Shown here piece by piece: positions 23,450-39,624 of a stretch of DNA of 55,879 bases; the first letter of the stretch is position 1, and every line of letters begins with the position of its first letter. A model generated the notes under the pieces. The model had not been told where the DNA came from, ran no database searches, and saw only the letters and a program-made list of their open reading frames with translations. The position numbers were made by a program, and so were the translations under genes. The stretch is taken from contig JABLTI010000005.1 of the NCBI GenBank assembly GCA_013166835.1, forward strand, positions 1-55,879, written 5' to 3'. Source of the DNA: Promethearchaeati archaeon (lineage in GTDB: Archaea > Asgardarchaeota > Heimdallarchaeia > JABLTI01).

Positions 23450-26400
23450 TTATTTTAGTGGTAATTGGCAAATTGCAGCAACAAATTCATCATTTTGATC
23501 AATTTTAGCTTTTAGCTCTAATTGGGATTTTCCTTTCAAATGAGTTTTCAGAAATTGATTGTCTATTGTAGAGATTTTGGTCGAATCGATTTCTAATACA
23601 ATTTCTTTATCTTTGATTTTACTGATAATTAAATCATGAAGATCAATTTTCAATCCAGTTCCAAGTACTTTAGAAGCGGCTTCTTTTGCGACCCAAATTT
23701 TGGTTAGGAGTTCCTCATTGATTTCTTTTTGCTGATTATTAATGAGTTCTTTTTCTTTTGAACTAATTAATTCGTCAACGAAAGAATTATCTCGCTTCAC
23801 TTTGATTTCTAAATCAATACCAGTATTGTTATTTGGATCAACGATCCCAACAGCGAAACCATTGCTGTGAGTAATTGATAAGCTAATATGTTTTTTATTT
23901 AGAATTATGAAGGGTTTACCCTGCTCATTCTTTTCGATTTTAATTTTGGATAATTGTATGTTAGGATTGATTTTCCTTAAAGCTAATTTTATAGCAATTA
24001 CACCGGCAATCCATTCTTTTCTTCTTTTTTCAACTGTAAGAGATTCATATTTTGTTTTCTCATCTGCATGAAGGAATTTATCCAAGTAATCATTTTCAGA
24101 TTCAATTTTCTTGCTTAATTGTTCTACATTAACTACTTCAAGAATTGCTTCTTTTGGTATCTCAAAGAGACGCCTTAATCGTTCAATTTGAATTTCTTGA
24201 GCTTGACTAATTTCTGCTCCAAAATCAACTTGAACTGTAGAGTACTCTTCTGCTTTTAGTAAAACTTGTCCTGTTTTTGATAAAACTTCAAAATTATAGA
24301 TACTACCAAGTTCTGAATCTTTTATCTTTGAACCTCGGATGAAAGCTGCTGGTTCTGTAGCTTTGTTAATGACGAGTGATTTAATTCCAAATGGTAAACC
24401 TAATTTACTATTCTTTATTATATCAAGTAATCCCATTGATTGGAATGCTGATTCTATGATTAGGGGATCAATAGTAAAACCTTTGTTCTCAAAACTGAAT
24501 TGGTTTTTATCACTTGTAGAAACTTTGGTAATAATATCTTGTTTGAAATCATTGATTTCTCTGAGAACATGGAATAATGGCCCATGTGGGAGAATACTAT
24601 AAATTGTTTCTTTACTAACTAATTCTTTTGGATGAAGTTTTGGTTTTGTAGCGGATTCTTCCTTTCTACTGCCCAGGATTACTTCTGCTGTGAAGTGAGT
24701 ATTTGGCTTCCCTACTACAGCGCCATCTTTTATAAATTCCGAGAATATTACGCACTTCGGATTTTTAGTGGAATAATCAATACGTGTTTTTAGGATTCGA
24801 GATTTGTCATTTGTAAATTTAATAGCGGATTTGAATTCAACATCATTAAATCCAACAAGCTTCGCTTTTGGAAATGCAATTTTTGTTAGTTCTGCGAATA
24901 TCTCAAGACCGATTACGCCAGGGAGAAATGGAATATTATCGAATCTATGATGATTTAAGTAAAGATCATCCTCAAGTGAAAAGTTCCTTTCAGTTACTAT
25001 AGATCCATCATAGTTTCGTTTGATTTTTCCAATAAGTGGATACAACTTCTTATCGACAGACAGATATTTGGAAGGTGATTCCATTAAAATGCCAATTTTA
25101 CCTGCAATAACTACTTCTGGTTCTAAGCCGAATTCAAGTTCATTGATGAAAGCCTTTACTCCGTCTTTGACTGTTATAGGAGTAACTCCAGCATGTTTCA
25201 AGATAGTCATAACAGAACCTCTTGTTGCCATACCTACTTCTCCCCAAGCAGACCAACAAATTGAAGTTGCACGAATGCCTGTGGACCTTAATTGCCAGCA
25301 ATTTTTGGAAAGATAATCATTGGCAGCGGAATAATCAACTTGCCCAGCATTTCCATATCTACCAGCAACAGAAGAGAAGCATTTGATGAATTTAACCTTC
25401 TTCAAGTTCACATTTTGAAGTAAATTGTCTAAACCAATAGCTTTCACATTATAGACTAAATCAAATTCCTCTGGTTTTTTATCTTTAATTAATCGGGATA
25501 TCTCTAATCCAGCACCATGAATTATTCCAATAATTTCTTGATTAAAATCTAATCTGATTTGATCTATAGTAGATTTCATTTGCTCAGGATTAACAACATT
25601 AGTGGTATAATATTTCACTTCAGATCCGAGAGAAGCTAGTTCTTCTTTTGCTTTCTCTATATCAATTGCTTTACTGATTTTAGACCATTCTTTCTCAATT
25701 AAAACAGGAGTGACTCTATCATTGTTTTGTTTGAGATCACTAATCAATTGTTCTTTTAGTTGAGCTAACCTTTCTTGATCATATTTAGCAATTTCAGTGA
25801 TTTTATCAGGTAATTCTTCAATACCTATTAACGCTAATTTTAGTTGATATTTTCTTGCCAATTCCCTAGTAATTTCATATGTGATACCTAATGCACCACC
25901 AGTAATCAAAACTAATTCGTCTTTTGCGATTGTAAATGGTTGTTCAGTAGGTTCGATAGGAGATTCCACTGTAATGAAAACTTTTCTCTTGCCTTCTTCT
26001 GTATAGGAAACCTCAAGAGATCCATCTCCAGCATACAACTCTTCAATAGCAAATTTAGGATTACTACAAGAAACACACTTGACAATACTATTGGTAAACT
26101 CTCGAGCAATTGCTTTAGTTAAACCTGTAAGGGAACCAGAAATAGGAGAGTATTTTCCTTCCCAGCCAAAGGAGGTTTCTGTCTTGCATATTGTTAAAAT
26201 CATAGGTGATTCAGAATATTTTACATCACGACAAAGGGTAAAGAAGATTCTTGCTGTTCTATCATGTTTATTACTTTGAGTTGTTTTTGGTTCAATGTAA
26301 ATTAGACCATCAATTACTTCTTCAGGTAATTCTTTGAGTATTTTGTCTCGAGTATTTTGGCTTTTCAAATCGATATGTTTTACTAATATAACTTTTTTAT

Positions 26401-38859: not shown

Positions 38860-39624
38860 TCAATCCTCAAATCCTATGACTTGTTCAATCTCTCCAACAG
38901 AGATAATTTCTTCCCCTGTGGAAGTTTGGATTATCAAATCACCATTTGGGGTAATGCCTTTTTCAATGCCTTCAATTAGCTTTTCTTTCAAACGAACTGT
39001 TACATTTGATTCATAACTCACAGATCGTTCTTTCCAAAGAGGAGTGATATTTGGGAGTAAACCCTTTTCAAATTGTAAGACAATAGCACTCTGAGTAGAT
39101 AAAATAACATCACGAATTTTTTCTAATGAAAATTCTTTTTCTGTTTCATGATAAATGGTTGTAGCTGTTTCTTGTAATTCATCTGATAATGATGAAAGTT
39201 TGAAATTTACATTTAATCCTACTCCAAGAATTAGATGTTTTAAGAAGATTTCTTGAGAGCTAAGATCTATTAGGATTCCCCCAACCTTCTTATTTTTCAA
39301 AAAAAGATCGTTTGGCCATTTAACTCTGAAGGGTAAGTCAAGTAATTCTTCAAGACTTTCTGAGATTGCTAAACCTATTCTTACTGAAAATCCTTGAAAA
39401 TACTTCAAGGGAATTTTTTTCTGCAGTATCGTTGACATCCATAATCCACCAGAAGGAGATGCCCAATTTCGATCTAACTGTCCTTTGCCATGTATTTGTT
39501 TCTTTGCCTGAATGACTAATCCGTGATTTGATTTTCCTTGTTTAATATATTCCTTAGCTAATAATTGAGTTGATTCAATTTCATCAAATACAATGATTTT
39601 TCCACTTGTCGAGGTCATTTTCAT
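38860..39624 (-). CDS. birA: Biotin--[acetyl-CoA carboxylase] ligase, without HTH
   Basis: STQ, Q..GKGQ..R.W.SP.GGLW, KWPND, KKVGGIL, GVGLNV. Confidence 0.92.
   Translation of the reverse strand: MKMTSTSGKIIVFDEIESTQLLAKEYIKQGKSNHGLVIQAKKQIHGKGQLDRNWASPSGGLWMSTILQKKIPLKYFQGFSVRIGLAISESLEELLDLPFRVKWPNDLFLKNKKVGGILIDLSSQEIFLKHLILGVGLNVNFKLSSLSDELQETATTIYHETEKEFSLEKIRDVILSTQSAIVLQFEKGLLPNITPLWKERSVSYESNVTVRLKEKLIEGIEKGITPNGDLIIQTSTGEEIISVGEIEQVIGFED

Follow-up and report, generated by a model that had tools for sequence, protein, structure and literature searches.

A putative acyl carrier protein-dependent type I fatty-acyl synthase with a linked acyl-CoA carboxylase in a Heimdallarchaeia genome

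Can an archaeon make fatty-acyl chains on a carrier protein with a bacterial-type megasynthase of its own? The available text of a recent preprint (bioRxiv 10.1101/2024.07.05.601840) states that archaea seem to be without fatty acid synthase (FAS) I or a complete FAS II and mostly without acyl carrier protein (ACP) and ACP synthase, in agreement with the premise of a preliminary description of the present DNA that archaea are generally held to lack ACP-dependent type I FAS. The question is raised by a locus in the window analyzed here, which is one entire contig of 55,879 bp (JABLTI010000005.1; C123 in our numbering) from a 3.56-Mb metagenome-assembled genome (MAG) of 260 contigs, 84.75% complete and with 6.79% contamination, assigned to Heimdallarchaeia. 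The locus encodes a 3599-aa megasynthase together with the subunits of an acyl-CoA carboxylase, a biotin ligase and an alpha/beta hydrolase. We propose, with a probability that we place at roughly 0.65, that its predicted products constitute a type I fatty-acyl synthase that is iterative, fully reducing and dependent on ACP, with a dedicated supply of malonyl-CoA. The genes of the locus are:

23450..34249, minus strand: megasynthase, 3599 aa, ER-ER'-KS-AT-KS2-ACP-ACP-KR-DH-PPTase (open reading frame, translation, Pfam, NCBIfam)
34296..35903, minus strand: acyl-CoA carboxylase carboxyltransferase, PccB/12S type, 46 nt upstream of the megasynthase (PF01039, E 2.5e-194)
36075..37547, plus strand: biotin carboxylase (AccC), divergent from the carboxyltransferase (Pfam, NCBIfam)
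37430..38026, plus strand: biotin carboxyl carrier protein (BCCP) with an ESMKM biotinylation motif (PF00364 and motif)
38053..38856, plus strand: alpha/beta hydrolase, Ser108/Asp198/His227, candidate chain-release enzyme (Pfam, triad in orthologues, predicted structure)
38860..39624, minus strand: biotin-protein ligase BirA, convergent (TIGR00121, 170.6 bits, cut-off 83.1)

The open reading frames (ORFs) and their Pfam and NCBIfam families bear out the layout first described, i.e. the megasynthase 46 nt downstream of a carboxyltransferase on the same strand, with the biotin carboxylase, BCCP and hydrolase genes divergent from this pair and BirA converging on them. An open frame of 10.8 kb at 33% GC that matches 13 Pfam families is far beyond chance. 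The domain order given earlier, ketosynthase (KS), acyltransferase (AT), ACP, ketoreductase (KR), dehydratase (DH), enoyl reductase (ER) and phosphopantetheinyl transferase (PPTase), does not survive comparison with Pfam, NCBIfam and the alignment, which place the ER region at the N-terminus and add a second KS that had been overlooked. The domains, in order along the protein and all on the minus strand, are:

32330..34249, minus strand: ER region, aa 1-640, two NMO/FabK-like TIM-barrel segments at ~1-300 and 327-640 (PF03060 in two stretches)
30830..32065, minus strand: KS1, aa 729-1140, Cys939/His1073/His1111 (PF00109 and PF02801; residues in 116/116 aligned rows)
29309..30193, minus strand: AT, aa 1353-1647, GHSMG with Ser1448, AAFH at 1550-1553 (PF00698; Ser, Phe and His in 116/116 rows)
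27230..29062, minus strand: KS2, ~aa 1730-2340, FabF-like, Cys2046/His2194/His2234 (best PDB sequence matches FabF; 4ddo, E 2e-22)
26948..27148, minus strand: ACP1, aa 2368-2434, LGIDTV, Thr2397 at the phosphopantetheine position (PF00550)
26618..26821, minus strand: ACP2, ~aa 2476-2544, LGIDTV, Thr2507 (motif and alignment)
25241..25912, minus strand: KR, aa 2780-3003, GGALGIT, Tyr2973 (PF08659)
24227..25039, minus strand: polyketide synthase (PKS)-type DH, aa 3071-3341, His3101 (PF21089 and PF14765)
23453..24109, minus strand: Sfp/HetI-type PPTase, aa 3381-3599, C-terminal (PF01648, 49.2 bits, cut-off 25)

We followed the catalytic residues through an alignment of 116 of the 120 best homologues; four proteins shorter than 2300 aa (P0026, P0035, P0037 and P0106) were dropped from the alignment, the residue counts and the first of the trees discussed below, and the archaeal group was defined by rank in the match list (P0003-P0038 plus P0112). 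The residues of KS1, AT and KS2 are kept in all 34 archaeal-group rows and all 42 long bacterial rows, and the KR tyrosine and DH histidine in 31 of the 34, the other three being gaps in truncated rows, and again in 42 of 42. This includes the complete Cys-His-His triad of KS2, the domain that goes by the name of 'CLF' in the Type R clusters considered below. At the level of the alignment all catalytic residues that were checked in the megasynthase are intact. Its individual domains stand at varying distances from curated models: FabK TIGR03151 aligns to aa 327-597 with a score under its cut-off, the AT falls just short of FabD TIGR00128 (246.5 bits, cut-off 260.9), and the PPTase lies far under the cut-off of HetI NF042922. 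The AAFH of the AT is what we take to be a malonyl-type motif, following the specificity rule of the PKS literature. A single polypeptide thereby unites KS, AT, ACP, KR, DH and ER with intact catalytic residues, the combination that defines a type I FAS, and, with its PPTase and the tightly linked carboxylase, matches the earlier statement that the complement would suffice for reductive chain elongation from malonyl-CoA.

The carrier domains have a peculiarity of their own. Both exceed the PF00550 cut-off, yet neither has the conserved serine of the (D/G)xDS(L/I) motif; in its place Thr2397 and Thr2507 align exactly with the modified serine of DS(L/I) in solved ACPs. Threonine occupies this column in 33 of the 34 archaeal-group and 37 of the 42 long bacterial rows, with 2 to 5 copies in tandem, and the shorter single-KS relatives (2300-2900 aa) have LGIDSI in 36 of 40 cases. 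LGIDTV is kept throughout the two-KS clade, archaeal and bacterial members alike (P0003-P0112). A description of threonine carrier sites was not found in a literature search, which is a weak negative.

The remaining genes of the locus would furnish the substrate and release the product. Biotin carboxylase, BCCP with the lysine of its MKM motif, carboxyltransferase and biotin ligase together supply all parts of a biotin-dependent acyl-CoA carboxylase, and the malonyl-type motif of the AT suggests acetyl-CoA as its substrate. The real start of the BCCP probably lies downstream of the listed TTG, and an N-terminal repressor domain of BirA gave no match in Pfam or NCBIfam. The Ser108/Asp198/His227 triad of the hydrolase is unchanged across 6 of 6 orthologues, and the predicted structure of the enzyme (pLDDT 69.1) is nearest to the thermostable lipase 7q4j, other esterases and the fungal PKS thioesterase DcsB; chain release would most simply be assigned to this enzyme.

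A search of the rest of this genome, bearing in mind its completeness of 84.75%, revealed no competing system. FabA/FabZ (PF07977) has no match in the genome, the megasynthase included; no KS was seen beyond the two domains of the megasynthase and one thiolase-like ORF of 430 aa; tblastn found no other AT, ACP, KR, ER or PPTase; and type II FAS was not found. Hence, the megasynthase would be the sole fatty-acyl synthase of the organism. Contig C21 carries a stand-alone PKS-type DH of 436 aa (L033:8035-9345, plus strand), 38.7% identical to the DH of the synthase; a DegV gene and a further alpha/beta hydrolase lie no more than 6 kb away.

To trace the locus in relatives we used the first 3000 aa of the megasynthase as the query against seven families of the class, f1 to f7, where f1 is the host's own family and the genomes of f3 belong to genus g4. 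Full-length orthologues (59-92% identity, frames of 3574-3612 aa) occur in all 11 other genomes of f1, and orthologues of ~45% identity in 17 of 18 genomes of f2, 5 of 5 of f4 and the single genomes of f5 and f6, among them two genomes assembled as single contigs. No megasynthase match was obtained in f7. In the 22 genomes of f3 the megasynthase was not found either; ten of them give short SDR/NMO-like matches with E-values of 1e-5 to 9e-4, which, like a KS-like ORF of 421 aa in one genome (G041), we did not count as megasynthases. With the KS2-ACP region as the query, the gene was recovered in 61 of 400 genomes of the phylum, almost all of this class, so that the absence from related genomes that the preliminary description had held open is not what is seen. 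Outside the class its occurrence is patchy (G134:C1:868821-871268 and genus g53), with 3 of 14 genomes in f19, among which one is closed, and 10 of 135 in f20; this pattern suggests either early presence followed by loss or transfers within the phylum.

The association of the synthase with the carboxylase is similarly persistent. Of the 35 relatives with the synthase, 31 have the carboxyltransferase gene immediately upstream of it in the same orientation, both closed genomes among them; in the other four the two genes are on different contigs. Some or all of a core made up of BirA, carboxyltransferase, megasynthase, hydrolase, BCCP and biotin carboxylase is retained in f1, f2 and f4; in f1 and f2 the BirA, biotin carboxylase, BCCP and hydrolase genes are within or beside the cluster. 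Among seven fetched regions the biotin carboxylase stays in the cluster in six and was not seen in that of G016, and the hydrolase adjoins the cluster in all five fetched regions of f1 and f2, immediately following the synthase in f2. The order in f4 is biotin carboxylase-BCCP-carboxyltransferase-synthase, and two f4 synthases (G014:C21 and G022:C7) are shorter, at 3235-3309 aa, begin at the KS and have more ACP repeats. ER-like sequence was not seen within the 26-40 kb fetched around these two genes, so that the ER of f4 either acts in trans or is absent. In the closed genome G016 the synthase appears as two frames, of 1510 and 2729 aa, in which a piece of KS is repeated (G016:C1:483031-493771), and the hydrolase-BCCP segment matches twice, ~2.7 kb apart, which may reflect a duplication or an insertion.

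Several lines of evidence bear on whether the locus truly belongs to a Heimdallarchaeia genome. The nearest proteins (3350-3626 aa, 36-89% identity over the ER region) are labelled Candidatus Heimdallarchaeota, Asgard group, Kariarchaeaceae, Hodarchaeota, Heimdallarchaeaceae and Promethearchaeota, and some of the nearest archaeal-labelled homologues sit on contigs of up to 930 kb; two close homologues are labelled Bathyarchaeia and Zixibacteria, which we take as binning labels. A search of genome contigs for related loci gave a single match (L034), which is 91% identical and bears the title Candidatus Heimdallarchaeota; it shed no light on the bacterial sister clades. Scans of the window and the MAG for rRNA (RF01959), tRNA and other Rfam families yielded nothing useful for taxonomy, and no rRNA was found in the MAG. 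The placement of the host in Heimdallarchaeia is supported by the protein labels and a shared archaeal gene context.

That context emerged from tblastn of 26 window proteins against the seven fetched regions. Two genomes of the same genus, G009 (C44, 116 kb) and G010 (C15, 461 kb), are colinear with the window over ~35 kb and across both borders of the locus, sharing the order VTT, GET3, TRAP-beta, Maf, BpsA, SAM decarboxylase, BirA, hydrolase, BCCP, biotin carboxylase, carboxyltransferase, megasynthase, 617-aa ORF, ThiI, TFS and flavoprotein; thus, both borders are native. Contigs of a separate, independent DNA study (X5) extend over each of the 30 bins of positions 21000-40999, with 16 of 19 contigs at least 99% alike, and single X5 contigs span 32240-35928, which includes the junction of carboxyltransferase and megasynthase, and 38617-40763 at the right border. 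Among the matches listed, no contig of X5 or of a further study (X11) bridges 23390-23638, and hence the left border rests on synteny, not on reads. On these data the contig is not chimeric at the borders of the locus, and the TFS, ThiI, BpsA, TRAP-beta, GET3 and VTT genes that the flanks share with relatives speak against bacterial flanks, both of which had been raised in the preliminary description. Contigs from RNA libraries of two studies (X19, 12 of 20 at least 99% alike; X20, 90-99% alike) match the megasynthase, carboxyltransferase and biotin carboxylase/BCCP; these contigs, which carry neither strand nor level and may derive from DNA, are a weak hint of expression.

The flanks encode an RPB9/TFS zinc ribbon protein, a ThiI/THUMP protein, AdoMet decarboxylase, BpsA, Maf, TRAP-beta, ArsA/GET3 and VTT proteins. 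The TFS, ThiI, BpsA and GET3 genes named in the preliminary description are among them; its archaeal winged-helix protein is not, as the gene so labelled is the following one:

21444..23297, minus strand: protein of 617 aa, 152 nt downstream of the megasynthase (orthologues of 67-69% identity hold the corresponding place in G009 and G010)

Pfam assigns this ORF to no family at E<=0.001, its only matches being weak ones to TPR at E 0.002; directly 3' of the synthase and on the same strand, it is possibly a member of its operon. The GC content is 0.32-0.37 in the locus and 0.31-0.33 in the flanks, without a sharp break; composition is alike across the junctions, as had been said, though not identical. 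Farther along, at 44174-48231, adjoining genes encode TRAP-beta-like, GET3/ArsA ATPase and VTT-domain (VMP1/TMEM41-like) proteins, a set that is kept in G009; all three are eukaryote-type families of endoplasmic-reticulum membrane biogenesis.

The wider affinities of the megasynthase lie with bacteria. Beyond the archaeal group the closest proteins are bacterial ones of 3570-4020 aa with two KS domains and threonine ACPs, at 30-35% identity (Desulfobacterales, Spirochaetes and Bradymonadaceae), followed by shorter single-KS proteins (Acidobacteria, Chryseobacterium). In a FastTree phylogeny of ER, KS1 and AT with 116 rows, the 34 archaeal-group rows fall on one side of a branch with a support of 100, and in an IQ-TREE phylogeny of KS1 and AT with 52 rows hand-picked from the 116 they again fall on one side of a branch, with an SH-aLRT of 89; no archaeal-labelled row lies outside the group among the 116. 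The archaeal clade, a small PPTase-bearing bacterial clade and a Desulfobacterales clade form an unresolved three-way split (support 45 or open). The acquisition from bacteria advanced in the preliminary description is therefore borne out in that the archaeal group is one clade inside a bacterial PfaA-like family, and not in respect of donor or direction; we rejected the naming of a bacterial donor, the order of the three clades being unresolved. The data fit a single entry, apparently followed by vertical descent together with the carboxyltransferase.

Comparison with known systems places the megasynthase near, and outside, several of them. The best NCBIfam model is PfaA TIGR02813, with 918.5 bits against a cut-off of 1010.1, which leaves it below the threshold for a PfaA. 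With the synthases that make polyunsaturated fatty acids (PUFA) in bacteria and thraustochytrids it shares tandem ACPs with LGID(S/T)(I/V), a PS-type DH after the KR and an ER of the TIM-barrel and not the MDR type; it differs from PfaA in being a single polypeptide with threonine ACPs, with no PfaB or PfaC partner and no FabA-like DH/isomerase found. Similar in plan are the Type R and Type S clusters of uncharacterised 'secondary lipid synthases', which Shulse and Allen 2011 (PMC3098273), in the available text, report from Acidobacteria, Elusimicrobia and Chloroflexi (Type R) and from Desulfobacterium autotrophicum (Type S), the latter being proposed there as the core FAS of a bacterium without fabA/fabZ. 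These have in common with the present synthase the series KS-MAT-'CLF'-tandem ACPs-KR with a PPTase, and an acetyl-CoA carboxylase gene lies within one such cluster. Unlike in Type R, the ER, DH and PPTase are fused in the megasynthase, there are two ACPs as against 3-6, and the 'CLF' keeps its Cys-His-His; moreover the host is archaeal, and the word 'archaea' is absent from the main text of PMC3098273. We infer from their description that the two-KS bacterial clade corresponds to Types R and S.

The type I FAS of fungi and of corynebacteria and mycobacteria is likewise single-polypeptide, ACP-dependent and fully reducing, with an FMN/TIM-barrel ER, and fungal FAS carries a fused PPTase; however, the domain order and the organisation of the AT and malonyl/palmitoyl transferase are wholly different, and the KS and AT of the megasynthase are of the PKS/PfaA type. 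The ACP-independent FAS of archaea, a ketothiolase/DUF35 complex for which de novo synthesis has been proposed and whose gene pairs are said in the available text to be abundant in Asgard genomes (bioRxiv 10.1101/2024.07.05.601840), works on CoA esters without ACP or PPTase and is unrelated in sequence, in contrast to the present ACP-dependent system of bacterial type. A 'potentially novel PKS cluster', with KS domains nearest to PUFA synthases, was reported from one Heimdallarchaeota MAG as a possible antifungal or PUFA-like biosynthetic gene cluster (Chen et al. 2020, PMC7472256), and that PKS very probably belongs to the same gene family; the available text of that account includes no domain map, carboxylase linkage, conservation survey, threonine ACP or Fak/PlsY context. 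The novelty of the finding is to this extent reduced, the gene cluster being otherwise not met in the literature: in a search with supplements outside its scope, no paper tied Heimdallarch* to fatty acid synthase, for PUFA Chen et al. 2020 stood alone, and queries on Asgard polyketide synthases, fatty acids or acyl carrier proteins gave nothing further on the megasynthase gene in the text available, though an earlier mention is possible. Likewise, in their available parts, discussions of Asgard lipids mention only PlsY, PlsC and Tes homologues, archaeol bilayers have been predicted for Heimdallarchaeia, and the lipid-divide section of a 2026 review leaves such a synthase unmentioned; in the main text of Eme et al. 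2023 the words 'fatty acid', 'polyketide', 'lipid' and 'acyl' are all absent.

What would become of a released chain is suggested by other contigs of the MAG. DegV/FakB is encoded by 18 genes, PlsY by 10 and a FakA-like protein by one, so that FakA, FakB/DegV and PlsY of the acyl-phosphate pathway are all present. An operon on C106 (L032:2041-4790) joins the FakA-like gene (Dak2 and FakA-like_M domains) to DegV and PlsY, and the three stand side by side also in six more members of the genus, G001, G002, G003, G004, G009 and G010. As in the FakA/FakB-PlsY system of Firmicutes, a FakA-like protein, DegV and PlsY thus come together in one operon; the present set differs in that the FakA-like protein has 329 aa and matches only the first two FakA domains, DegV and PlsY have multiplied to 18 and 10 copies, no PlsX or PlsC was found, and the host is archaeal. 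A PlsY paralogue adjoins BirA just upstream of the carboxyltransferase and synthase in two closed genomes. DegV copies number 5-22 in f1, 3-14 in f2, 2-3 in f4 and 0-2 in f3, and PlsY copies 4-13 in f1, mostly 2-3 in f2 (one in an incomplete genome) and 0-2, with much weaker scores, in f3; both are most numerous in genomes with the megasynthase and far fewer in the sister genus without it.

The enzymes of the two classical glycerolipid routes are unevenly spread. PlsX (PF02504) exceeds the cut-off in none of 61 genomes, and PlsC (PF01553) in none of 12 in f1 and none of 18 in f2, while it is present in 22 of 22 in f3 and 5 of 5 in f4; the counts agree with the available text of Wu et al. 2022, which gives Ca. 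Heimdallarchaeum as without PlsC. Geranylgeranylglyceryl phosphate synthase (GGGPS) of the PcrB family was sought by Pfam in this genome and its relatives, with an f3 protein as the query and with a hidden Markov model (HMM) built from seven sequences of the class. It was found in none of the 12 genomes of f1, nor in f5 or f6; f2 gave one strong and two weak matches in 18 genomes, f3 19 of 22 and f7 2 of 2, and the best match of the HMM to the six-frame ORFs of at least 80 aa in this genome has an E-value of 0.0045. Two closed genomes are among those in which neither this GGGPS nor PlsC was found. A non-homologous or very divergent GGGPS in f1 is possible. CarS (CDP-archaeol synthase) occurs in 56 of 61 relatives, this genome included. 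GpsA (PF01210) and Fe-ADH_2 (PF13685) gave only weak generic matches in this genome and permit no conclusion on the supply of glycerol-3-phosphate (G3P) or glycerol-1-phosphate (G1P). The PlsY paralogues are one candidate for the attachment of either type of chain to glycerol phosphate in f1 and f2; bacterial PlsY takes G1P as well as G3P, according to the available text of a study from Driessen's group (PMC13400652).

Putting these elements together, the pathway may be envisaged as follows: 1) BirA, biotin carboxylase, BCCP and carboxyltransferase would produce malonyl-CoA. 2) The fused PPTase would arm both ACPs, unusually on threonine. 3) The AT would load malonyl units. 4) KS1 and KS2 would share the elongation cycles, perhaps dividing them between short and long chains like the two KSs of PUFA synthases. 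5) KR, DH and ER would fully reduce each beta-keto group. 6) As no FabA-type isomerising dehydratase is present, the predicted product would be no PUFA but a saturated chain, or at most one with a hydroxy or mono-enoyl group. 7) The lipase-like alpha/beta hydrolase would free the chain. 8) With less assurance, DegV/FakB may bind the free acid, FakA phosphorylate it and the PlsY paralogues acylate glycerol phosphate, giving ester-linked acylglycerol phosphates. The route from synthase to free acid, acyl-phosphate and acyl-glycerol phosphate is suggested by the co-occurrence of these genes on other contigs of the MAG. The gene itself would have entered the lineage once, from bacteria or shared with them, and have descended vertically with the carboxyltransferase thereafter.

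A number of observations weigh against a fatty-acyl synthase so understood. No product is known for any member of the clade, bacterial or archaeal; the nearest named relatives are 'secondary lipid' and PUFA synthases and the PfaA score is under the cut-off, so that membership of neither the FAS nor the PfaA family is established. Both ACPs have threonine where all characterised carriers have serine, and the loading of threonine is assumed. The megasynthases of f4 are without a fused ER. The carboxyltransferase is of the PccB/mmdA type and could use propionyl-CoA, and the hydrolase model is only moderately confident, with generic esterases as its matches. As to origin, of the 34 archaeal-group rows 17 are labelled as archaeal, one as Zixibacteria and 16 not at all, and the nearest carboxyltransferases from beyond the clade belong to archaea and bacteria alike, at 62-66% identity, which is uninformative on this point and does not reveal whether the carboxylase arrived together with the synthase. 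As to lipids, the Fak and PlsY genes, found on other contigs of a MAG whose contamination is 6.79%, could act on scavenged fatty acids; the standard diacyl-phospholipid route is incomplete, given the distribution of PlsX and PlsC in f1 and f2, and isoprenoid lipids are probably still made, given that of CarS.

The most serious of the alternatives, which we nonetheless regard as unlikely, is that the enzyme is a 'secondary lipid' or polyketide synthase making a specialised long-chain product, e.g. the aglycone of a hydroxy-alkyl glycolipid, a hydrocarbon precursor or a signalling lipid, with the Fak/PlsY genes handling scavenged acids separately. The closest curated model being PfaA, the fit of the architecture to Type R (KS-MAT-CLF-ACPn-KR with PPTase; PMC3098273), the filing of the PKS, with its PUFA-like KS domains, as a biosynthetic gene cluster (Chen et al. 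2020, PMC7472256) and the service of Firmicutes Fak systems to exogenous fatty acids, these sources being cited from their available text, all point this way, as do the presence of CarS, with archaeal lipids probably made anyway, and the stand-alone PS-DH on C21 as a possible tailoring enzyme. However, tblastn with the window proteins placed no glycosyltransferase, reductase, methyltransferase or cyclase beside the core in the seven fetched regions; the synthase is near-universal in five families and always accompanied by a housekeeping-type carboxylase; it is the only KS/AT/ACP system found in the genome; and the full KR-DH-ER loop would give a plain reduced chain.

That the ACPs bear no phosphopantetheine at all owing to their threonine, the protein being inactive as an ACP-dependent synthase or using intermediates bound to CoA or another carrier, appears improbable to us. 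The threonine does stand exactly at the position of the modified serine of solved ACPs, and Ser-to-Thr mutants of E. coli ACP are reportedly not modified by AcpS; against this, its retention with LGIDTV in nearly all archaeal-group and most long bacterial rows, in 2 to 5 copies (33/34 and 37/42), speaks for a functional site under selection, the archaeal clade and one bacterial clade have a fused PPTase, for which no other carrier was found in the genome, and the catalytic residues are all intact. We can give hardly any credence to the locus being bacterial DNA misjoined or misbinned into an archaeal MAG. Such an origin might be thought of for a MAG of 260 contigs with 6.79% contamination, a protein family otherwise bacterial and two close homologues with Zixibacteria and Bathyarchaeia labels, but two other genomes have the same gene order across both borders, on contigs of 116 kb and 461 kb, two members of the class assembled as single contigs carry the gene, contigs of an independent study match at 99% or more, and composition shows no break. 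We therefore retain the ACP-dependent fatty-acyl synthase as the preferred reading.

The locus is real, native, deeply conserved and intact, an archaeal form of a biochemically uncharacterised bacterial family of PfaA-like synthases. Its host belongs to the archaea closest to eukaryotes, and the change from isoprenoid-ether to fatty-acyl-ester membranes is among the main unsolved steps in the origin of eukaryotes; the locus bears strongly on the lipid divide. By itself it does not show membrane ester lipids. One may speculate, as a doubtful extension of the preferred reading, that Heimdallarchaeia of f1 and f2 build a substantial part of their membrane from fatty acids of their own, by way of the release enzyme, FakA/FakB and the radiation of PlsY, with the PcrB-type GGGPS and PlsC lost and carriers bearing O-phosphopantetheinyl-threonine. 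The threonine carrier site is a separate biochemical puzzle, which extends to a large bacterial family. For the archaea themselves, a synthase with its carboxylase beside an expanded fatty-acid kinase and PlsY toolkit would be the missing source of acyl chains, and it makes the question of membrane ester lipids testable.

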